A stretch of DNA of 44,566 nucleotides from Candidatus Hadarchaeales archaeon (lineage in GTDB: Archaea > Hadarchaeota > Hadarchaeia > Hadarchaeales > Hadarchaeaceae): assembly GCA_038851075.1 (NCBI GenBank), contig JAWCLG010000008.1, positions 1-44,566 on the forward strand, in the 5' to 3' direction. The notes beneath the pieces were generated by a model, which worked only from the letters and a program-made list of their open reading frames with translations, was not told the DNA's origin and did not search any database. Of this stretch, positions 1 to 12,261 are shown in pieces (positions within the stretch are counted from its first letter, which is position 1; each line of letters starts with the position of its first letter). The translations under genes were made by a program, and so were the position numbers.

Positions 1-2348
1 ATGTTGTGCGGTATGTTTATTGGAGCGCCTTCCAGCCTGTTTATGGCCTCCTCGATGCTGCTCGCGTGGAGGGTGGAGTAAGAGGTGTGGCCGGTCGACA
101 TGGCCTGGAAAAGCGTGAGTCCCTCTTTTCCCCTGACCTCACCAACGACTATGCACTCCGGCCTCTGTCTCATGGCCTGCAGCAGGAGGTCGTAAAGCGT
201 AATTCCTCCGCCACCTTCTCCTATCGTCCCCCTGGTCACGCTCGGGATCCAGTTCGGCTGGTAGAGCGTGAGCTCTCTTGTCTCCTCCAGCGAGACGATC
301 TTGGCGTCCGGGGGTATGAAGAGGGCCATTGCGTTCAGCGTCGATGTTTTTCCAGAGGCGGTCTCTCCTATTATCAGTATGTTATTTTTGTTCTCGACGG
401 CCAGCCACAGGTACGCCAGCATCTCCGCGGAGTAGGTCTTGTTCTTCAGCAGGTGGATCGGTGTGAACGGCTCCTTTGCGAACTTCCTTATCGTAAAGGT
501 GCTTCCTCTTGTTGTTATCTCCCTCCCCAGTGTCGCCTGCAGCCTGGATCCGTCCGGGAGCGTGGCATCGACGGTCGGCTTTCCGAATGAGATCATCTTG
601 CCGCTTCGCTCCACAAGATTTATCACGATGGAGTTCAGGACCTCTTCATCGCGGAAGACTATGTTTGTGGGAGTGCTGTAATACTTCCGGTGATATATGT
701 ACACCGGCACGTCAAGCCCGTTGCATGATATGTCCTCTATGTTTGGGTCCTTCATCAGGGCGTCGATGCCTTTGAGCCCGAAGCACTCCCTCCTGATTTC
801 GTAGTAGAGCTTGTAGGCAGTGAGCGGGGATATCTTGATCTTGCTTTTTGTGATGAACTCATAAATCTTGGTGGATAGCACTTTCTCCCTGCTGCCCATC
901 AGCTCCTCCAGGGAGAGCCTTGCCTTGAGGTGTTCCACTATCTGCTCGGCGAGTTTCTTCTCGTTCTCGTCAAGCTTCGGCTCGACCAGACAGTACAGTC
1001 TTTCCCTGGTCTTCGGGTTCTGCATGATCTGCACGTAGGCGAACGGCTCATCGACCCAGTACTCCTCTACGCTCTGAAAGCCTTCAATGGGTTCCGGCTT
1101 GGTTATCGGCCCGTGGATCTTCGGGTCGTAAGGCGGAAATCCCTCAAGCTTCAGCTCTGCGGGTTTGGCCTCCTCGATCTTGATCTTCTTCTTTGTCACA
1201 ATCTCCTTGATCGCCCTGTCGAGTTCAGCTCCTTTTTTTGGCAGTGGTTCTACCTCTTTCACCGGGATCTTTTCATAGACGATTTTCCCGGCTCCGGGCT
1301 TCGCGCCGCCGCTTATCACGGTGACGCCCGGTGCCCTCTCTCCGGAAACCGGCCTCTCGACAACGACTTCTCTCTCCTCCGGAAGTTCAGGTTCTTCCTC
1401 CGGAGCGACCTCTTCCTCGGCCTCAGCTGAGGTTTCCTCCGCAGTCTCGATTTCCGCCGCCCTAGCAGTTTTTTCCGCGACCGCCCCGGTTACCACGTGT
1501 TCCCTCAAAACTGATCTGGGCTTCACGCCTGCAGCCTTCTTCATGGCGGCTTCGGGTTCCTCCTCTATCTGTCCCTCTATGGCTCTGGCAAGCGCCCTCT
1601 TGCTCATCTCCTCGCGCGCCGGCTTAACCGGTAAGGCGGGCTCGATCGGTGTTTCCACCTTCTCTGGTCTTTTGCCCGGGATTTTCACCGGTGGCTCCTC
1701 GATTCCGTGCTCAATTGCGCGCGCGAGTTCCTTCTTCCTCTCGAGTTCAACCGCGGGCTTTGGTTTTTCGGTTTTCACGGTTCTTTTGCTTGGAATCTTG
1801 ACCGGGGGCTCCTCCTCTACCCCCCGTTCGATCGCGCGTGCTAGTTCCTTCTTGGTGAGTTCATGAGGCGGTTTCTCCTTTACCGGTTTCACTTTCTCAG
1901 GAACCTTTTCCTTGATCTTCAGCGGCTCTTCCTCGAGTGCCCTCTCGATGTCCACGGCCAGCGCGCTCTTGTCGGGCCTGGGCACGGGCGTTTCTTTCAC
2001 GGTCTCGAACTCAATGCCCTCCTCCTCCACGGCTCCGGCGAGCGCCCTTGCCAGCGCCTCCTTCTCGAACGTGACTTTTTCCGGTGCCACGGTCTTTTTC
2101 CCGAGGCTTCTGGCCAGATCCATTGCTGCGCCGTCCCTTGCGATTCTCTCCAGCGCAGCCCTGGAAAACGTCATTCCCCTGAAGCGTACCGTTTTTCCGG
2201 ATCTGCTCCTTCTGAGAGCCCTGAGAAGCTCCTCCTCGAAATCGTACGGTCTGATATGGATTATGCGTCTGCGGGTTTTTCTCCTCCTTTTGACTCTTCT
2301 GATTCTATGAAAAGAGCGCGATTTCCCCTTCAGGCGTCTTTTTGTCAT
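1..2348 (-). CDS. Type II/IV secretion (VirB11/ArlI/PilB family) pilus assembly ATPase, 3'-truncated by window edge, long N-terminal extension
   Basis: Not in the ORF track because there is no stop in the window. Manual translation from ATG at 2348 stays open to position 1. Contains DPNIEDISCNG, DATLPDGSR, FTIRKF, Walker A GETASGKT, LEETRE, RQRPECIVVGEVRG and His-box TGHTSYSTLHA. Confidence 0.93.
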   Translation of the reverse strand, partial: MTKRRLKGKSRSFHRIRRVKRRRKTRRRIIHIRPYDFEEELLRALRRSRSGKTVRFRGMTFSRAALERIARDGAAMDLARSLGKKTVAPEKVTFEKEALARALAGAVEEEGIEFETVKETPVPRPDKSALAVDIERALEEEPLKIKEKVPEKVKPVKEKPPHELTKKELARAIERGVEEEPPVKIPSKRTVKTEKPKPAVELERKKELARAIEHGIEEPPVKIPGKRPEKVETPIEPALPVKPAREEMSKRALARAIEGQIEEEPEAAMKKAAGVKPRSVLREHVVTGAVAEKTARAAEIETAEETSAEAEEEVAPEEEPELPEEREVVVERPVSGERAPGVTVISGGAKPGAGKIVYEKIPVKEVEPLPKKGAELDRAIKEIVTKKKIKIEEAKPAELKLEGFPPYDPKIHGPITKPEPIEGFQSVEEYWVDEPFAYVQIMQNPKTRERLYCLVEPKLDENEKKLAEQIVEHLKARLSLEELMGSREKVLSTKIYEFITKSKIKISPLTAYKLYYEIRRECFGLKGIDALMKDPNIEDISCNGLDVPVYIYHRKYYSTPTNIVFRDEEVLNSIVINLVERSGKMISFGKPTVDATLPDGSRLQATLGREITTRGSTFTIRKFAKEPFTPIHLLKNKTYSAEMLAYLWLAVENKNNILIIGETASGKTSTLNAMALFIPPDAKIVSLEETRELTLYQPNWIPSVTRGTIGEGGGGITLYDLLLQAMRQRPECIVVGEVRGKEGLTLFQAMSTGHTSYSTLHASSIEEAINRLEGAPINIPHN

Positions 2349-2448
2349 CCCAACCGCCAGAAATAAATTATGTAGTTGCGGCTTAATAATCTGACTGGAC
2401 CGGATGAGTTTCGATTCACGTTTTTGCATATGATAAAACAGCAAAAAA

Positions 2449-2479
2449 GCTGCCGGGGTCTTGCTTTTTGGCCGGCAGC
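2449..2479 (-). terminator. Hairpin/terminator downstream of pilin gene
   Basis: GCTGCCGG (2449-2456) pairs with CCGGCAGC (2472-2479). On the minus strand it is followed by T6 (2448-2443), just after the pilin stop at 2494. Confidence 0.55.
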
Positions 2480-2493
2480 GGTTTTTATGGATT

Positions 2494-2943
2494 TTACGCT
2501 ACAGTTTCCTGCGTAAGGATTTGGTTGGCTGGTTTGTAGACGATAGTTATGACATCTCCGGAACTAAGTGCTTGTGTCCCAATGAATGCTGCTTTTAATA
2601 TATCGCCCGCTTTGAACTGGGTGACGTTAATAGAGCCACCGTTTAGAGTGTAAGCGGGAGTAGATGTAACCGTGCTTGAAGATATCCTAACTTCAAGTAC
2701 ACTAGTGTTGAGAGTACTACCTGAGAAAGCATTGGATATCGTGTCCCCTCCCATGTGTTTTATAATAATTCCTCTGGAGGTGTTGACAGCATTTTCAATT
2801 GTTATGTTCGCGGTTATGGTTCCTGATGTCAGAGTCCCGCCCAGTCCGCTCACGAAAATCGCTATGCTTCCGATAGCGACTACCGTTATTGCGATGAGCA
2901 GAATCGTTGCGACGACTGCAGAAACTCCTTTAAAATCCTTCAT
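2494..2943 (-). CDS. Archaeal type IV pilin (DUF1628-like N-terminus), probable major pilin, 149 aa
   Basis: ATG at 2943 with GAGGTGA SD. Class III signal peptide MKDFKG|VSAVVATILLIAITV, HMGGD motif and four N-x-S/T sequons. Confidence 0.9.
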   Translation of the reverse strand: MKDFKGVSAVVATILLIAITVVAIGSIAIFVSGLGGTLTSGTITANITIENAVNTSRGIIIKHMGGDTISNAFSGSTLNTSVLEVRISSSTVTSTPAYTLNGGSINVTQFKAGDILKAAFIGTQALSSGDVITIVYKPANQILTQETVA

Positions 2944-2979
2944 TTTATTTTCACCTCTTTTACACATATGTCCTGACGA

Positions 2980-2996
2980 TTTAAAAACGCTTTCGG
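2980..2996 (-). promoter_or_regulatory. BRE/TATA-like promoter of the pilin gene
   Basis: Minus strand reads CCGAAAGCG-TTTTTAAA, ending about 37 nt upstream of the ATG at 2943. Confidence 0.5.
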
Positions 2997-3064
2997 TCCC
3001 GGTATAAAAGCGCAATTCCCGCATATCTGCAAATTACGGGATTCACTGAAAAAGGGGATATTTT

Positions 3065-3110
3065 TGCGGCCCGGGGCCACCCGATCAGGAGCCCGCGACC
3101 CCGGGCCGCA
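3065..3110. terminator. 12-bp perfect GC-rich inverted repeat between the GLUG-pilin and the major pilin
   Basis: TGCGGCCCGGGG (3065-3076) and CCCCGGGCCGCA (3099-3110), 22-nt loop, immediately after the stop at 3129. Confidence 0.5.
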
Positions 3111-3128
3111 GGGGAAGCCATCGAGTTA

Positions 3129-4439
3129 TCAGGGGACCGTGTATTGCACCAGCAGCTGGTTCGCGGGACGATATATGATTGTTATAACATCTCCCGGTCT
3201 CAGCCCAAGCCTGGCAACAAAGCCAGGGTTCATGAGCGCAGGATATCCGCTGTTCACCCCGGGTATGATCGTCCATATGTCTCTTGTTCCGGTGTCTACA
3301 GGTGGATTACCCACAAAGTCCCACGGAGTGGTCAGTCCTGGGCTCTGACTCGGATTGGTGAACGTGGAGACATCTTTCATCTGCGCCGTTGTTTTCCCGG
3401 TACCACCCGCGCTGGTAGTTTTCCCGGACGTTTCCATGTCCCAGAAGGAGTTCTTTACTGTTCCATCCTGGCTTTTTCCGACAAGGCCTCCTCCGTTGCC
3501 ATCCACTGTGCCCGCGGAGTAACAGTTCTCGATACTGCCAGCGTTCCACCCCACGAGTCCGCCGGTGTGGGTATTACCTGTGACTTTGCAGAGCGAGTAG
3601 GATTCGGATATCTTTCCGGTGCCGGAATTAGTTCCTACCAGACCCCCAACGCTTGAAGTTCCTTCCACAACTCCCGTTGCGTAGCACCGCGTCACCGTGC
3701 CATAGTTGGCTCCTACCAGCGCTCCCGCACTTTGCCCCCCGATTACGCGCACGTTCTCCAGCCCTATATCCTTGATAATACCAGCTGTCCCGATTCCGCC
3801 GATAAATCCTCCGCTGGAGCTTGTACCCCGTATCACCAGGTTTTTTATCACGTGCCCCCTACCGTCGAAACTGCCGGTGAACTCCTCACCGCTGCCCGGT
3901 TTTGATATGGAATCTATCGTGAAGCCATTCGCGTCGATATCGCATCCAAGCGCGAAGTGTTTTTTGAGGAAATCCGAACCGAACAAGCTTTCCATCGTGT
4001 CAGGGCTTTTGATGTGTTCCACGCTTTTGATTATGTACGGGTCATCCGGAGTTCCGCTTCCGCTGGGCGTCCCACCGTCCTCCTGCCCGACCATACTGTA
4101 GTTTATCACGTCGTTCGCTTCGAGCCTCAGATCTCCTGTAACCTTGGCTCCATTGAATCTTATGTTTTCCATGCCGATAGGAACTCCGTTGATTCGCACC
4201 TCAAGGTCGCCCCAGCTGGCGCCACTTATCGCGTTTTGAATCGTCTCGCCCCCCTCGTGAATTATGCTGAATTCGGTCGACCCGGCAGCGGCCCCGGATA
4301 ACCGTATTTCAGAGTTAACTGGGGGACTCATCTGTAAAAACTGACCGAGTAAACAGGTGATTGATCCGGCAGCGATTACTGTAATTGAAGTAAGGAGCAC
4401 AACGGCTACAACTGGTGAGACACCCCTCCGGCCCTCCAC
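3129..4439 (-). CDS. Type IV pilin-like protein with inserted GLUG-repeat adhesin domain
   Basis: Signal RRG|VSPVVAVVLL and HEGGE motif. GLUG-family hallmarks GSGTPDDPYII, FTGSFDGRGHVIKNL, GGLVGxN repeats and SFWDMETSG..SAGGTGKTTAQM. Pilin-type C-terminus GDVITIIYRPANQ. Confidence 0.85.
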   Translation of the reverse strand: MEGRRGVSPVVAVVLLTSITVIAAGSITCLLGQFLQMSPPVNSEIRLSGAAAGSTEFSIIHEGGETIQNAISGASWGDLEVRINGVPIGMENIRFNGAKVTGDLRLEANDVINYSMVGQEDGGTPSGSGTPDDPYIIKSVEHIKSPDTMESLFGSDFLKKHFALGCDIDANGFTIDSISKPGSGEEFTGSFDGRGHVIKNLVIRGTSSSGGFIGGIGTAGIIKDIGLENVRVIGGQSAGALVGANYGTVTRCYATGVVEGTSSVGGLVGTNSGTGKISESYSLCKVTGNTHTGGLVGWNAGSIENCYSAGTVDGNGGGLVGKSQDGTVKNSFWDMETSGKTTSAGGTGKTTAQMKDVSTFTNPSQSPGLTTPWDFVGNPPVDTGTRDIWTIIPGVNSGYPALMNPGFVARLGLRPGDVITIIYRPANQLLVQYTVP

Positions 4440-4570
4440 GGCTCCCCCTAATCATATCTATATCTACTTTTGGGCAATTAAGTTTTTCCCGCTTTTTAAA
4501 CCCCCGAAAACCGCCGGGACTCGGAGGCAGATGTATTTTTAAATATCTTAGATTATCTTTTATTGGTTGC

Positions 4571-5329
4571 ATGGCAAGGGTAATCGCAATGGCTTCGGGG
4601 AAGGGCGGCTCCGGAAAGAGCATGGTGACCGCCAACTTTGGAATCGCGCTTGCAAAGTTTGGAAAGCGTACGCTTATAATTGACGCAGATATATCAATGC
4701 CCAATCTGCATATTTTTACTGGACAGAGGAATATTCCTCCGGTAACCCTTTACGAGGTCCTTGCGAAATTAAATCCTCCGCAACAGGCAGTACAAAAAAT
4801 CTACGGTGGCGCCGACCTGATGCCGTGCGGGACATCTCTTGATGGTTTTTTGAAGGCGGATGTGAGGAGGCTGAAGGATGTAGTTGATATAATGGCGCCG
4901 AGCTATGACTATGTACTCCTTGATACGTCTCCCGGGTTGAACAAGTACAACCTGACAGCTATCAGGGCTGCGGGTGAGGCAATATGGGTTGTCACTCCGG
5001 ACGAGCCGTCACTGTCGAGCACGTACAGGTTGAAAACTGCCGCCGATGTTTTCGACGTTAAGACGGTAGGAATTATTGTGAACAAGCTTCCATCGTTTTC
5101 TTGGGGTGAGCGCAAAAAGGTCCCACCGCTGAGGCGGGCAGACATAGAGTCGAGATTTGGGTCTAAAATAATTGGGACAATACCCGAAAAGAAGGAAGTT
5201 TATATAGCAACCCTGCTGAAAAAGTCGGTGATCGAATACAGTCCGAAAGGCCCGGTCACAATAGCTTTCAGAGATATGGTAAGGAGCTTCCTCGTGGCCT
5301 CAGGCCAGGATTTGGCGATGCCAAGGTAA
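4571..5329 (+). CDS. minD: MinD/ParA-family ATPase
   Basis: ATG at 4571. Deviant Walker A SGKGGSGKS, IDADISMPNL, YDYVLLDTSPG, VVTPD and GIIVNK motifs. Confidence 0.85.
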   Translation: MARVIAMASGKGGSGKSMVTANFGIALAKFGKRTLIIDADISMPNLHIFTGQRNIPPVTLYEVLAKLNPPQQAVQKIYGGADLMPCGTSLDGFLKADVRRLKDVVDIMAPSYDYVLLDTSPGLNKYNLTAIRAAGEAIWVVTPDEPSLSSTYRLKTAADVFDVKTVGIIVNKLPSFSWGERKKVPPLRRADIESRFGSKIIGTIPEKKEVYIATLLKKSVIEYSPKGPVTIAFRDMVRSFLVASGQDLAMPR

Positions 5330-8445: not shown

Positions 8446-9069
8446 ATGAAGGTAGAGCTGATATCCATCACTCCCGATGCAGAGAGGCTCATCGAGGCAG
8501 CAGGCAGAACTTGCTACCTCTCGTTCGGGAAGCAGGGAAAGGGCACCGAGAAGTCGTTCATAAGGATGCTCATCAAAAGGGGGCATCTCTCGGTTCTGGA
8601 GCACGCCCACGCCACCTTCAGGATCTCCGGGGCTTCCAGGTCTTTCACCCATCAGCTGGTAAGGCACAGGCTCTGCTCGTATTCCCAGCAGTCCCAGAGG
8701 TACGTGGACGAGAAGAACTTCAGGTTCATCGAGCCGGAGTCGATAAAAAACAACGAAAAGGCTCACTCAATCTTCATGAGGTTCATGGAGGAGGCGAGAA
8801 ACACGTATGCTGAGCTCCAGAGGCTGGGAATAAAAAATGAGGATGCGAGGTTCGTGCTGCCGAACGCCGTGGAGAGCCAGATAGTGGTGACCGCCAACTT
8901 CAGGGAATGGAGGCACATAGTGGAGCTCAGGGGAGACCCAGGCGCCCAGTGGGAGATCAGACAGGTCGCAATAGAGATCCTCCGCATTCTCAAAAAGCAC
9001 GCGCCTGAGGTCTTCGCTGACTTCGAGATAGACGATGAGAAAAAGTGCATCAGAAAGGTCCAGATCTAG
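8446..9069 (+). CDS. thyX: FAD-dependent thymidylate synthase ThyX
   Basis: GHLSVLEH, ThyX motif RHRLCSYSQQSQRY, EDARFVLP and AQWEIR. Confidence 0.96.
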   Translation: MKVELISITPDAERLIEAAGRTCYLSFGKQGKGTEKSFIRMLIKRGHLSVLEHAHATFRISGASRSFTHQLVRHRLCSYSQQSQRYVDEKNFRFIEPESIKNNEKAHSIFMRFMEEARNTYAELQRLGIKNEDARFVLPNAVESQIVVTANFREWRHIVELRGDPGAQWEIRQVAIEILRILKKHAPEVFADFEIDDEKKCIRKVQI

Positions 9070-9470
9070 CGCTTTATGGACCTCTGTGCCAGCTGCGTCA
9101 TTCTTTTTTCGATGCGGTCCCGTATCTCTTCAGGGTCACCTTCTCCCCTGGCCAGGCTTGTGTAATCAAGCAGGTCGTCAATCATGAACTCCGCGGTTTC
9201 CAGGTCGATTATCCCCGCGTAAATCGCGAGCTCTATTGTGTAAAAGGAGCGCATCAGCACCTCTCTGCCCCTTTTCCACTGTTTCCATGCACCCGGCTGG
9301 CCAATCCTGAGTCTTCTTGAGATGTCCTGGAATGTCGCATCCTCGCTCCATGAGTGAAGCAGGAGGGCCTTGAGCGTTTTTTCCTTGAAGTGTGAGCGCT
9401 CCAGAAGCACGCGTGCGAGCAGGTTTTCTTTGAGCCACCTCTCAGCTTTTTCTATGTCCTCTCTGCTCAT
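9066..9470 (-). CDS. Hypothetical protein with putative HTH (sigma-70 region 4/Tfx-like)
   Basis: Helical 134-aa ORF with GGGGAG SD. TFQDISRRLRIGQPGAWKQWKRG resembles a helix-turn-helix. Confidence 0.55.
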   Translation of the reverse strand: MSREDIEKAERWLKENLLARVLLERSHFKEKTLKALLLHSWSEDATFQDISRRLRIGQPGAWKQWKRGREVLMRSFYTIELAIYAGIIDLETAEFMIDDLLDYTSLARGEGDPEEIRDRIEKRMTQLAQRSIKR

Positions 9471-9554: not shown

Positions 9555-10427
9555 TCAGATGTCAGGTTTCCTCCTGAAGAAAGATATTCGATTCCCCTTT
9601 TTGACAGCGTTTTCGTCTATCGATCCGCCTTTCTCAGCAGCGTACCTGAGAGCCATGCTGGCAATCTTCAGAGCCTTTCTTGGTATTCCTCCGCTGAGCC
9701 TGTAAATCGTTTCAAATCCCTTTTCCGTAAGTAAAACAGACCCGTTTTCGCATCCTGCGTTTTTAATCCTCAGATCAAGTATCGCCCTCATCTTTTCCCT
9801 GTTCAGCGGATTTATCTCGACCCTGACCTGTACCCTGTCCCTGAGGGCTGGCACCTCCTCAAGAAACCTTGCCATTTTTCTGGGCTCTCCGTTGATCAGC
9901 ACGGTTATATTGGGAATATCTACCAGGACCCTCAGAAATTCGCCTATATCTCTGGGATTTATCCTGCTCTCGTGTATGTCGTCAACCACTATAGCCAGCC
10001 TTTCAGCATGCTCCTTGGGCCACCTGCGGAGAATCTCGAACATGCTCGCCCTGTCCCTGTTGGGGTCCATCTCGAGCCCGAGCATAATTGCCCTGAGTAT
10101 CTCGTCCATAGATTTGTAAGCCGCACCGTGGATGAAGACCGCAATCACGTTTTTTGAGGGTTCCTGTGACAGTAGGCTCTCTTCGCGCAGGGCGGTGACG
10201 AGAAAGCTGCACAGCGTGGTCTTCCCGGTTCCGAGCCCTCCGGTGATGACGCCCAGTTTTCCGCCCGTCAGCACCCATTTCAGTTTCTTCAGGTCATCTT
10301 CCTGAACCGGAACAAACATATCTATTGAGGAGAGCTCGAGCTTGAAGGGATCCTCTTTGAGCCCCCATCTCATCAGGTAGTCCTCGAAAACCTGATCCTT
10401 GCCTATTTTATCCTCGAAAAGAGTCAT
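9555..10427 (-). CDS. ExeA/GspA-like (AAA_22, TnsC-related) AAA+ ATPase
   Basis: N-terminal YLMRWGLKEDPF (ExeA-like YxxxFGLxxxPF), Walker A GGLGTGKT, Walker B IVVDDIH, Arg-finger ALRDRV and sensor SGGIPR. No C-terminal TM segment. Confidence 0.82.
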   Translation of the reverse strand: MTLFEDKIGKDQVFEDYLMRWGLKEDPFKLELSSIDMFVPVQEDDLKKLKWVLTGGKLGVITGGLGTGKTTLCSFLVTALREESLLSQEPSKNVIAVFIHGAAYKSMDEILRAIMLGLEMDPNRDRASMFEILRRWPKEHAERLAIVVDDIHESRINPRDIGEFLRVLVDIPNITVLINGEPRKMARFLEEVPALRDRVQVRVEINPLNREKMRAILDLRIKNAGCENGSVLLTEKGFETIYRLSGGIPRKALKIASMALRYAAEKGGSIDENAVKKGNRISFFRRKPDI

Positions 10428-11128
10428 GCAATCACCTGAACCGCAAGCTCATAGGTTCCGTTTTTCTCAACAAGATATCCCTTCTGCACCATTCTTTCGC
10501 AGAAAACACGGGAGAGCTGTGTAGGGCACCTGCTCCTGGCGGCGATTTCTTCAACGGTGAACCTTCCGAGTGAGATGGCAGCAGATATCATATCTCCGAA
10601 TGCAGTTCTCTGAAGAAGCCCTGATGGGGAGAGTTCTTCCAGTAAATGCATTCTGGAAACCTCTTTTTTTGTCAGGGTGTCTTTTAATTCATTTTTTTCA
10701 TTTTTTAATTCAATTTTTTCATTTTCTTCATTCTCCGGAAAGCCCGCGCATGATTTACACAGTGTTTTTATCTCTTCAGGGGCCCCCGTACAGTCCCGAG
10801 GATGAACTGTGAGATTTTTGGTTGCCCCGCATCTTGTGCATCTGTGCCCGTCTCTTATCATGACGGCCTTCTTAACGAGTGATACATCGTCTTTGCAGTT
10901 GGTGAAAACGAATTCCAGAAAGCTTTTCATGAGATCTGGGCTACTGGACTCGTTTTCAATAGTGCGTGGAGCTCCGAGAATGCGGTTAATCTCACTTTCA
11001 GGAACCCTTCTTTTCCCTCCCTGAGGCCTCACAATCCTTATTTTACCCTCGCGATCCCATCTCCTGAGAGTGTTTGGGTGTATTCCGAGCCTTTCACATG
11101 CCTCTCCAACACTCACAAGTTTCTCCAT
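10424..11128 (-). CDS. MerR/Xis-like (IS607-type) HTH + degenerate HNH Zn-finger + C-terminal winged-HTH protein
   Basis: EACERLGIHPNTLRRWDREGKI..RPQGGKRR, then RDGHRCTRCG..LTVH..TLCKSC, then FTVEEIAARSRC...MVQKGYLVEKNGTY. ATGA overlap with the ATPase gene. Confidence 0.75.
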   Translation of the reverse strand: MEKLVSVGEACERLGIHPNTLRRWDREGKIRIVRPQGGKRRVPESEINRILGAPRTIENESSSPDLMKSFLEFVFTNCKDDVSLVKKAVMIRDGHRCTRCGATKNLTVHPRDCTGAPEEIKTLCKSCAGFPENEENEKIELKNEKNELKDTLTKKEVSRMHLLEELSPSGLLQRTAFGDMISAAISLGRFTVEEIAARSRCPTQLSRVFCERMVQKGYLVEKNGTYELAVQVIA

Positions 11129-11134
11129 CCTATC

Positions 11135-11256
11135 AAAAATTAACTAAATCTAACAATATATAAATCTAACTAAATCTAACAATATCTAACAAAAATTAAC
11201 AATTTATAACTAAATAGTTAAAATTTGTTAGAAATGGTTAGGTTTGGTTAACATAT
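11135..11256. repeat. AT-rich array of 10-bp units ending in TAAC (7 direct + 4 inverted)
   Basis: TAAC ends at 11144, 11154, 11170, 11180, 11190, 11200 and 11210. GTTA starts at 11217, 11227, 11237 and 11247. TAAATCTAAC occurs three times exactly. Confidence 0.92.
11156..11163 (-). promoter_or_regulatory. TATA box of the HTH-HNH/AAA+ cassette
   Basis: Minus strand TTTATATA at 11163-11156, about 30 nt upstream of the ATG at 11128, formed by the 6-bp interruption of the array. Confidence 0.65.
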
Positions 11257-12261
11257 TCTCGGAGCTGGATCACCGGATGGGTACTCCATTATGCGCCTTC
11301 CGCCCATGGCTGTTTCGACGATAACCTGACCCGGATATTTATCCGTGGCTTCGCCTATGACTGCCGCCCTTCTACCGTACTTGGTTTTCCTTATCACTTC
11401 CAGAACTCTGTCCGCATATTCTCTTTTCACGCTCATCACGACCTTTCCCTCATTGGTTATCTGAAGAGGGTCTATCCCGAGGAGTTCGCCAGCCGCTCTC
11501 ACGGGCTCGGCCACCGGTATGTTCTCCTCTCTTATGAGTATGCCAGTGCCGCTCTTTGATGACATATCGTTGAGCGCGGCAGCGAGCCCTCCTCTGGTCG
11601 GATCCTTCATCGCTGTTACACCACCTACTTTCAGGGCGGCGTCCACGGTTTCCCATACCGGAGCCACGTCTGAGACAAGGTCGAGGTCAAGGTTTATCCC
11701 CTCCCTCTTTGCCAGTATTGTCATTCCGTGGTCCCCAATTGTTCCGCTCACTATTATAATGTCGCCCGGACAGACGCCCCTGTCAGTGATTATCCCTTCG
11801 GATATCCCTAGTCCTGTGGTTGTCAGCACCATGCCGTCCAGCTCCCCCCTCCCCATCACCTTCATGTCACCGGTCACCAGCGGGCATCCTGCCTCTTTGA
11901 GCGCCGAGTTCATGGATGCTGTGATCTTCTCAAGATCGCTTATTGGGAGCCCTTCCTCCGCGACCATCGCGCATGACATCGCCAAGGGTCTGGCGCCCAT
12001 CACGGCAAGGTCATTCACGGTGCCAGAAACCGCCAGCCTGCCGATGTCCCCTCCGGGAAAGAACAGGGGCTTCACTGTGTGAGAGTCCGTGGTCAGGACA
12101 AGCGTTCTGCCTTCCAGCTCCACCGTGGCACCGTCGTCGAGTTCGTCGAGGCCCACCCTCCCGGCTCTTCTCAGTTCGATGCCTTTCAGGAACACCTCTG
12201 AGATTAGCTCCATCATGGCCTTTCCGCCGGCTCCGTGTATCAGCATGACCTTCTCAGGCAC
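11248..12261 (-). CDS. hypE: Hydrogenase maturation protein HypE
   Basis: HGAGG, TTDSHTVKPLFFPGGDIG, GTVNDLA, KDPTRGG, NEGK and C-terminal PRIC. Confidence 0.97.
   Translation of the reverse strand: MPEKVMLIHGAGGKAMMELISEVFLKGIELRRAGRVGLDELDDGATVELEGRTLVLTTDSHTVKPLFFPGGDIGRLAVSGTVNDLAVMGARPLAMSCAMVAEEGLPISDLEKITASMNSALKEAGCPLVTGDMKVMGRGELDGMVLTTTGLGISEGIITDRGVCPGDIIIVSGTIGDHGMTILAKREGINLDLDLVSDVAPVWETVDAALKVGGVTAMKDPTRGGLAAALNDMSSKSGTGILIREENIPVAEPVRAAGELLGIDPLQITNEGKVVMSVKREYADRVLEVIRKTKYGRRAAVIGEATDKYPGQVIVETAMGGRRIMEYPSGDPAPRIC

Follow-up and report, generated by a model that had tools for sequence, protein, structure and literature searches.

A phased ten-base-pair repeat array, probable operator of a DNA-binding protein and ATPase module conserved in Hadarchaeota

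The spacer separating two minus-strand genes of a Hadarchaeales archaeon, hypE and a gene for a helix-turn-helix (HTH) protein, is filled by an array of eleven 10-bp repeat units, and the question raised by this locus is what such a row of sites serves for. The locus lies in a stretch of 44,566 nucleotides of contig JAWCLG010000008.1 (assembly GCA_038851075.1, positions 1 to 44,566), the whole of which is here called the window. A first-pass annotation, made from the letters alone, proposed either a cooperative autoregulatory operator, bound on one helical face over a TATA box, or an iteron- or centromere-like site, and considered a DNA-unwinding element as well. Comparison with related loci indicates that the array is probably a multi-site operator of the HTH protein, the product of the next minus-strand gene downstream, which would bind it cooperatively, repress its own operon and fix at this place the ATPase encoded by the following gene.

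On the plus strand the TAAC cores begin at 11141, 11151, 11167, 11177, 11187, 11197 and 11207, and the GTTA cores at 11217, 11227, 11237 and 11247. Two plus five direct units are followed by four inverted ones, the TAAC/GTTA core is invariant, and the spacing is exactly 10 bp everywhere but at two breaks of 6 bp, one an insert between the two and the five direct units (11155-11160), the other at 11211-16. Read on the gene strand from the distal to the proximal end, the order is four TAAC cores, five GTTA units, a TATA box and two GTTA units. The TATA box, which had been placed in the first break, is indeed present there on the minus strand as TTTATATA; 28 nt separate it from the start codon of the HTH gene, whose ATG has its A at 11128. 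By the general geometry of archaeal promoters, the GTTA core immediately upstream of this TATA-like box is at the position of the B recognition element (BRE), and two GTTA units occupy the 28 nt to the ATG; the order GTTA, then TATA, is also present at orthologous loci. Because only 28 nt lie between box and start codon, the mRNA of the HTH gene would be leaderless or near-leaderless in the clade of the window. The HTH genes of other genera carry a GGTGA-type ribosome-binding site.

At its distal end the array reaches into hypE, as the first-pass annotation had claimed: the outermost core (11247-11250), which sits within a GTTAAC palindrome, shares bases with the stop codon of hypE. Where relatives have hypE upstream, such an overlap is partly a consequence of the Cys codon TGT followed by TAA or TAG, and it is missing from the related locus L111, where hypE ends in TGC TAA. 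The direct and inverted units together form an imperfect palindrome (Table 1). The AT-rich stretch holding the array has a GC content of 0.19 over 128 bp and is the sixth most AT-rich 150-bp segment of the genome.

The pattern TAAC-N6-TAAC-N6-TAAC is found five times in the window, where 0.01 matches would be expected (0 of 100 shuffles). When the 128-bp AT-rich stretch is shuffled locally, eight or more same-orientation 10-bp pairs of any 4-mer appear in 1 of 5000 shuffles, with a mean of 0.97; the array has eight such in-phase pairs. Over the whole genome searched (1,009,249 bases, 88% complete) the three-core pattern is confined to the array. GTTA-N6-GTTA pairs number 15 genome-wide, eight of them in the array, and the seven outside are near the counts for other spacings; the three of these seven that were inspected are all within long open reading frames in GC-rich sequence. 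A search for a regulon found neither a second array nor an enrichment of GTTA-N6-GTTA elsewhere in the genome. The number of units, their period, the switch of orientation and the invariant core described by the first-pass annotation are thus borne out by the sequence, the shuffles and the genome scan, and the scan for further (N6-TAAC)n arrays that it had suggested leaves this one unique. The assembly artefact that it had named as a refutation is ruled out by matching contigs from two studies which carry the array unchanged: a Logan contig of run X1 covers 11061-11700 gap-free, and one of the second study (run X4) covers 11122-11280 with zero differences. No variants in unit number were seen in the contigs of four runs, although contigs can hide rare variants. 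The sequencing runs containing the genome are labelled as hot-spring metagenomes, none of those listed being an RNA run.

The array belongs to a three-gene module with a fixed place in the chromosome. Forty-two loci were fetched, which represent 33 distinct places, nine having been fetched twice. In 41 of the 42 the HTH gene is single-copy and lies between hypE or a PHP-domain gene and thyX, and in 41 the ATPase gene follows it; in its own genome the HTH gene has one match only. Twenty-three Hadarchaeota loci, the window and 22 species, are of a type which we call long, and in all 23 GTTA cores (gene strand) surround the TATA box upstream of the orthologue, with one core at the BRE position and one to three between TATA box and start codon. 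Successive cores in the long loci give 120 spacings, 35 of exactly 10 bp and 12 of exactly 20 bp; spacings of 22-23 or 33-35 bridge the TATA box. The unit consensus is roughly T-t-GTTA-r followed by A/T. The protein of L111 is 62% identical to that of the window and has the same degenerate HNH region. In L111 three inverted TAAC units are followed, after a gap of 17 nt, by three GTTA units, the TATA box and a single proximal GTTA unit; the corresponding blocks in the window are of four, five and two units. Cores, TATA box and the proximal GTTAGATTTAGT block align between the two loci, and the spacers differ. Cores and layout therefore appear to be under constraint although the unit number varies, in agreement with the selection on the core that had been supposed from the window alone. 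Several contigs (L030, L008/L044, L013/L037, L019, L020, L036) begin within or just upstream of the array, with the gene start at 61-286, and L030 opens (1-97) within a run of eight GTTA units that has a super-period of 20 bp. Assemblies seem to break at the arrays, and unit numbers in metagenome-assembled genomes may be underestimates.

The core is tied to the neighbouring protein by co-variation. Seven positional orthologues are without the HNH region and have the recognition helix C/S-T/K-K-T-I-Q-R-W, as against H-P-N-T-L/I-R-R-W in the long type; these short-type orthologues keep the ATPase and the third gene of the module. Their promoters hold arrays of GACA-N6 that are laid out alike, with 15 of the 23 spacings equal to 10, GTTA being present 0-1 times per short-type locus and GACA being absent in 22 of the 23 long loci. 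Because neither the C-terminal winged helix of the protein nor the third gene's HTH sets the GTTA group apart from the GACA group, these comparisons point to the N-terminal domain as the reader of the core. At locus L196 (G028:C16) a 144-aa HTH_17 protein with the helix SPSTLRKW precedes the ATPase, and five GATAA direct repeats with 9-10 bp spacing are found about 70 nt upstream of locus position 1349, before the ATG; SPSTLRKW and GATAA would be a third helix-core pairing. At the loci L190, L194 and L195 (G025, G037, G029) and L191 and L193 (G038, G033), which belong to other Hadarchaeota families, the gene before the ATPase has an unrelated N-terminal HTH (IRPVSN..GVNSKTVYKYK), and the promoters carry GTAGG-N6/7-CCTAC palindromes about every 21 bp, or GTAGAC/GTCAA variants.

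The HTH protein begins with a MerR-like/HTH_17 winged helix (residues about 1-52); a degenerate HNH zinc-finger region and a linker rich in E, K and N follow, and 80 residues forming a C-terminal winged helix of generic type (about 155-234) complete it. Its AlphaFold model has a predicted local confidence (pLDDT) of 80.9 and shows no coiled coil after the N-terminal domain. The top matches of the N-terminal 52 residues among the sequences of solved structures are the BldC-DNA complexes 6ama and 6amk (E 9e-5), and by Foldseek the domain superposes on BldC with a TM score of 0.77 and a root-mean-square deviation of 1.7 A over 51 residues at 33% identity. The recognition helix reads HPNTLRRW and the wing GGKRR, and the contact residues K26, R30 and H46 of BldC align with N19, R23 and K39. 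N19, which changes to K between the long and short types, is by inference from this alignment the counterpart of K26. Outside the orthologues, the nearest relatives of the N-terminal domain are archaeal resolvase-domain proteins, named in their sources as IS607-family transposases or putative resolvases, which are 57-71% identical over the domain, and in a further set identity to the N-terminal domains of archaeal IS607-like proteins is 54-77%. The protein scores 33.3 bits against the NCBIfam model HTH_BldC (NF033787, cut-off 77) and 36.5 bits, over residues 9-58 only, against IS607 TnpA (NF033518, cut-off 110), and has no match to the serine-recombinase domain PF00239. Since it is below both curated cut-offs, without a recombinase domain and multi-domain, it belongs by sequence to neither of the two families. 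Most genera retain an intact HNH motif (VHH..N..CH..H), which is missing from the GACA-type orthologues; in the clade of the window the alignment shows its second His, its Asn and its last His substituted, and the Pfam HNH domain is detected in the proteins P0006-P0008 and not in the protein of the window. Nuclease activity of this region, if any, appears to be dispensable for the module. Inside the HTH gene, at window positions 10682-10733, there is a 21-bp tandem repeat of 2.4 copies with 90% matches, which encodes the E/K/N-rich linker (NEENEKIELKNEKNELK); residues 131-153 are disordered in the model.

BldC of Streptomyces is described in PMC5859096 as binding 9-bp direct repeats of variable number head-to-tail, as a filament, at the whiI and smeA-sffA promoters, with K26 and R30 of the recognition helix in the major groove and a His of the wing in the AT-rich minor groove; the same source describes the BldC family as spreading through the eubacteria. 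For the IS607-family TnpA of IS1535, the corresponding account in PMC6188088 gives four helically phased 9-bp direct repeats at the left end, bound cooperatively through the N-terminal winged helix and followed by spreading. Because this class of domain binds phased direct repeats, 10-bp units with a short core and AT-rich spacers are the target to be expected for the protein studied here. With BldC it shares a MerR-like winged helix without coiled coil and direct repeats of about one helical turn, AT-rich and variable in number; it differs in being archaeal, of 234 aa and multi-domain, with one target array, whereas BldC is a 68-residue single-domain bacterial regulator with a regulon, and the BldC repeat is 9-bp AATTXXXX(C), not a 10-bp unit with a GTTA core. 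TnpA is the closest relative of the N-terminal winged helix in sequence, and its HPNT-type elements bear TAAC-N6 repeats around a TATA box upstream of tnpA. In distinction to TnpA, the HTH protein has no serine recombinase, is single-copy in fixed synteny across the phylum and is not mobile, the proximal cores of its array point the opposite way, and its gene heads an operon with an AAA+ ATPase. By analogy, the array most likely works like the BldC operators and the IS607 left ends.

The likeness to the transposons extends to the DNA. Among 50 non-redundant IS607-like loci, an exact 10-bp GTTA/TAAC pair is found upstream of the gene in 6 of 12 with an HPNT helix and in 0 of 38 with other helices (Fisher 5.8e-5, a value which relatedness of the sequences inflates). 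In HPNT loci of other archaeal phyla the gene is directly preceded by GTTAAC, a TATA box and TAAC-N6-TAAC repeats; where the helix is T-T-R/K-T, repeats of TAGAC recur every 10 bp, a sequence similar to the GACA core of the short type. In a domain tree of 50 columns with many open forks, which gives a hint only, the short type groups with T-T-R-T transposase domains (80/78) and the domain of the window nests inside the HPNT transposase clade (95/87) on a long branch of 0.56. Domain and array resemble an IS607-family transposon at its left end, from which they may derive, and the data fit, without proving it, their acquisition together from transposon ends.

A mechanism which would account for these features can be proposed. 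Each 10-bp unit would seat one N-terminal MerR-like winged helix, with the recognition helix HPNTLRRW in the major groove, where it would read the GTTA core, and with the wing GGKRR in the minor groove of the AT-rich spacer. As the units are one helical turn apart, the copies of the protein would be aligned head-to-tail on one face of the DNA and would bind cooperatively. Repression in archaea generally works by blocking TBP/TFB or RNA polymerase; protein seated on the BRE/TATA-box core and on the two units that overlie the start site could block either, and a filled row, covering BRE/TATA box and transcription start of the three-gene operon, would shut the promoter. The reversed distal units would give two rows diverging from a central junction. 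The C-terminal winged helix would hold the ORC/MuB-like ATPase, and the array would probably fix the ATPase at a single chromosomal place. The cooperative operator on one helical face over the TATA box, as first put forward, is favoured by the co-variation of core and helix and by the class of the domain; the occlusion of TBP, the other part of that proposal, we infer.

Several observations weigh against the array being such an operator. All of the support is comparative or modelled, and the relatives compared are not independent of one another. The protein falls short of the NCBIfam cut-offs for HTH_BldC and IS607 TnpA, half of the HPNT-type IS607-like loci (6 of 12) are without an exact 10-bp pair, and at many orthologous loci the cores are not strictly periodic, as seen in the 35 of 120 spacings equal to 10. 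The operon also encodes two further DNA-binding modules, the C-terminal winged helix and the 134-aa third-gene product, which could bind the region as well. Eleven sites appear to exceed by far the needs of simple autorepression. The score of the ATPase complex discussed below is the confidence of the model itself, obtained with our own alignments. Finally, the inverted units can fold into a hairpin (z -4.76) which may have a role of its own at the RNA level.

Table 1. Coordinates in the window of the array, its promoter elements and the adjoining genes.
Feature	Position	Strand	Remarks
Repeat array	11135..11256	.	eleven 10-bp units
TATA-like box of the HTH gene, TTTATATA	11157-11164	-	minus-strand reading of the first break
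Imperfect palindrome	11167..11250	.	arms 11167-11206 and 11211-11250, 40 nt each, 83% complementary
HTH gene, presumed array-binding protein	10424..11128	-	234 aa; HTH_17/MerR domain matches
AAA+ ATPase (AAA_22, source-named ExeA-like)	9555..10427	-	290 residues; start codon overlaps the stop codon of the HTH gene
Third gene of the module	9066..9470	-	134-aa helical protein; sigma-70 region 4 / Tfx-like HTH (lead only)
hypE	11248..12261	-	upstream co-directional neighbour; stop codon inside the outermost array unit

The ATPase is detected in 58 of the 66 Hadarchaeota genomes searched and in 23 of the 26 of high quality. Its model (pLDDT 88.7) has as nearest folds ORC2 of Aeropyrum (E 5e-11, TM 0.69), MuB, Cdc6 and TnsC; it is without the C-terminal DNA-binding winged helix of Orc1/Cdc6, MuB and TnsC, and by sequence its only matches among solved structures are weak ones to TsaE. 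Complex prediction for the ATPase and HTH-protein residues 155-234 yields an ipSAE of 0.73 in three runs, the best of three controls having 0.00. The mark of 0.73 is reached by 58 of 80 solved complexes and by 2 of 110 mismatched pairs, counts which hold roughly here, the alignments being our own. The runs share at least 88% of the contacts, the pLDDT of the partner is at least 89, and the predicted interface contains the nearly invariant motif RTAFGD. The models suggest that the C-terminal domain of the HTH protein docks the ATPase, and the array may be more than a repressor site.

A different reading makes the array primarily a loading or anchoring platform: the HTH protein would form a filament on it, and this would tether, and perhaps polymerise, the ORC/MuB/TnsC-like ATPase at a single chromosomal address, for a task at the level of the chromosome such as segregation, organisation or replication control, with autoregulation as a by-product. 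The idea overlaps with the operator and differs from it in what is primary. It has precedents in small domains that polymerise on tandem sites one helical turn apart, as Xis of phage lambda does on X1-X1.5-X2 and ParR on parC of plasmid R1; the repeats of such a plasmid centromere flank the promoter of the genes for the binding protein and its nucleoside triphosphatase (NTPase), one site being both operator and platform. The array has the same architecture, its tandem repeats, each about one helical turn long, lying on both sides of the promoter that serves the operon of its presumed binding protein. Differences are that Xis serves a recombination system, and that ParR is a ribbon-helix-helix protein with the actin-like partner ParM, in contrast to an ORC/MuB-like AAA+ partner and a chromosomal locus here. 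The eleven sites unique in the genome, the retention of a multi-site array in every lineage whatever the DNA-binding domain, the wide distribution of an ATPase whose fold is nearest to DNA-loading AAA+ proteins, the predicted docking together with the overlap of the HTH stop and ATPase start codons, and the distances from orc1 and from an ORB pair given below would all suit a platform. On the other side, the ATPase tested against the partition NTPases is AAA_22 and of neither ParA, ParM nor TubZ class, several relatives show just 3-6 cores with irregular spacing, and proximity to the origin in two related genomes may be inherited synteny. A platform as the primary role is doubtful. What is left of the centromere-like site of the first-pass annotation is a weaker sense in which the array may, according to the model, tether an AAA+ ATPase.

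More specifically, the array could be a replication origin or unwinding element, its units being the iterons of a split initiator made of the HTH protein and the ORC-like ATPase. Its AT-rich stretch and the Orc1/Cdc6-like fold of the adjoining ATPase would agree with this. The genome offers a better candidate. The core TCCAGTGGAAAC of the origin recognition box (ORB) has two exact inverted copies on contig C2 (69360-69371 and 69581-69592), the only exact 12-mers of the genome, which match the Pyrococcus ORB/mini-ORB core in the form printed in PMC1904270. The pair flanks the fifth most AT-rich 150-bp segment of the genome, one copy being followed by a G-run, and lies between two orc1/cdc6 genes (C2:54861-55922 and 81585-82715); copies with one mismatch are found at C2:69184, 78666 and 83258. 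An AT-rich repeat region directly upstream of the main orc1 gene was not found, the ORB pair being 12 kb away. The segment C2:69360-69592 is likely to be oriC on sequence grounds, and the arrangement of archaeal origins, with ORB or mini-ORB copies flanking an AT-rich stretch next to orc1/cdc6, is not seen at the array. With both full Orc1/Cdc6 genes and the sole exact ORB-core pair on contig C2, an array always on the promoter of one gene and reduced to three cores in some relatives, and a core that changes along with the neighbouring DNA-binding domain, an origin at the array is extremely unlikely, and the suggestion of an origin or unwinding element is not supported, a secondary origin there being a remote possibility; GC skew in the window, proposed as a test, tracks the gene strand and gives no origin signal. 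In G008 (C1, about 803-833 kb) the main orc1/cdc6 gene is 29 kb away from the module, and in G025 (C2, about 266-327 kb) an ORB pair is 59 kb away from it. The exact ORB 12-mer was not found in G008 or G010, and the distance between module and origin was for this reason judged from orc1 in these two genomes. The module would thus be near the origin, not at it, and this position may be inherited synteny. The most AT-rich 150-bp segment of the genome, with a GC content of 0.12, is elsewhere (G000:C3:89926-90130) and is followed by two copies of a repeat of about 20 nt (GGTCAAAATTAGCCCAAAAT).

The close likeness to the region upstream of HPNT-type tnpA genes (GTTAAC, TATA box, TAAC-N6 repeats) and the nesting of the domain among IS607-like domains in the weak tree would also be expected if the array were a decaying, functionless relic of an IS607-like left end kept by chance. 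The absence of a serine-recombinase domain, the single copy in a neighbourhood conserved in 41 of 42 loci (33 distinct places), the cores kept while the spacers drift, and the lack of any further IS607-like copy in the genome, where the one match is the gene itself, make a relic very unlikely. Equally improbable as the main function is a role of the inverted part as RNA, in the form of a long hairpin terminating or stabilising the hypE transcript at its 3' end. The minus-strand RNA folds with -30.1 kcal/mol, none of 200 shuffles folding as well, a T5 run comes after it on the gene strand, and an exact inverted repeat of 11 nt occupies the corresponding position in L111; yet inverted units with AT-rich spacers produce such a hairpin automatically, an AU-rich one would be weak at hot-spring temperatures (the habitat being taken from the label), arrays persist where a divergent PHP-domain gene replaces hypE upstream, and no Rfam family matches, the best hit, a chance one to a plant microRNA family, having 19.1 bits against a gathering score of 94. 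Such a role could coexist with that of an operator. As for a plain minisatellite grown by slippage, or a chance feature of AT-rich DNA, unit number does differ among relatives and the contig of L030 starts inside an eight-unit run, but the shuffle tests, the persistence across genera of the cores and of their fixed arrangement about the TATA box, and the way the core co-varies with the protein leave this with hardly any probability. The first-pass annotation had named variable unit number without core conservation as its refutation, and the variation seen in relatives, with cores and layout constrained, is the opposite of that outcome.

The window as a whole is core chromosome, with pilus genes, thyX, hyp genes, a membrane-bound hydrogenase, RNA polymerase subunit D and SecY. 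At 3-5329 a type IV pilus-like cluster, with a T2SSE ATPase (3-2444) and two archaeal pilin genes (2494-3024 and 3129-4439), stands beside a gene for a ParA/MinD-type ATPase (4415-5329). A reading of the module as a defence system was tried with PADLOC and rejected, the matches being at domain level only (mad1 1.3e-11 for the HTH protein, mad8 6.3e-5 for the ATPase) with no system assignable.

A full-text literature search found no paper on this module or on an archaeal BldC-like array, and neither a cultured representative nor a functional result for the module came to light in it. The binding of phased repeats by MerR-like winged helices has so far been worked out for BldC and IS607, and the probable operator described here would be an archaeal, chromosomal and phylum-wide case. 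A wider and rather unlikely proposal is that Hadarchaeota domesticated an IS607-type left end, array together with domain, more than once (GTTA, GACA, GATAA), and that the resulting filament recruits the ATPase to a unique address, as an undescribed phylum-wide machine for DNA transactions located tens of kb from oriC and not merely a promoter switch. The three variants of the helix paired with three repeat cores form a natural experiment from which a simple recognition code could be read. The locus ties the architecture of a transposon end to the control of host genes, and it draws attention to a module of DNA binder, ORC/MuB-like ATPase and sigma-r4-like protein that is nearly universal in Hadarchaeota. 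If the docking of the ATPase is true, the array would, besides controlling its operon, also position an ORC/MuB-like ATPase on the chromosome.

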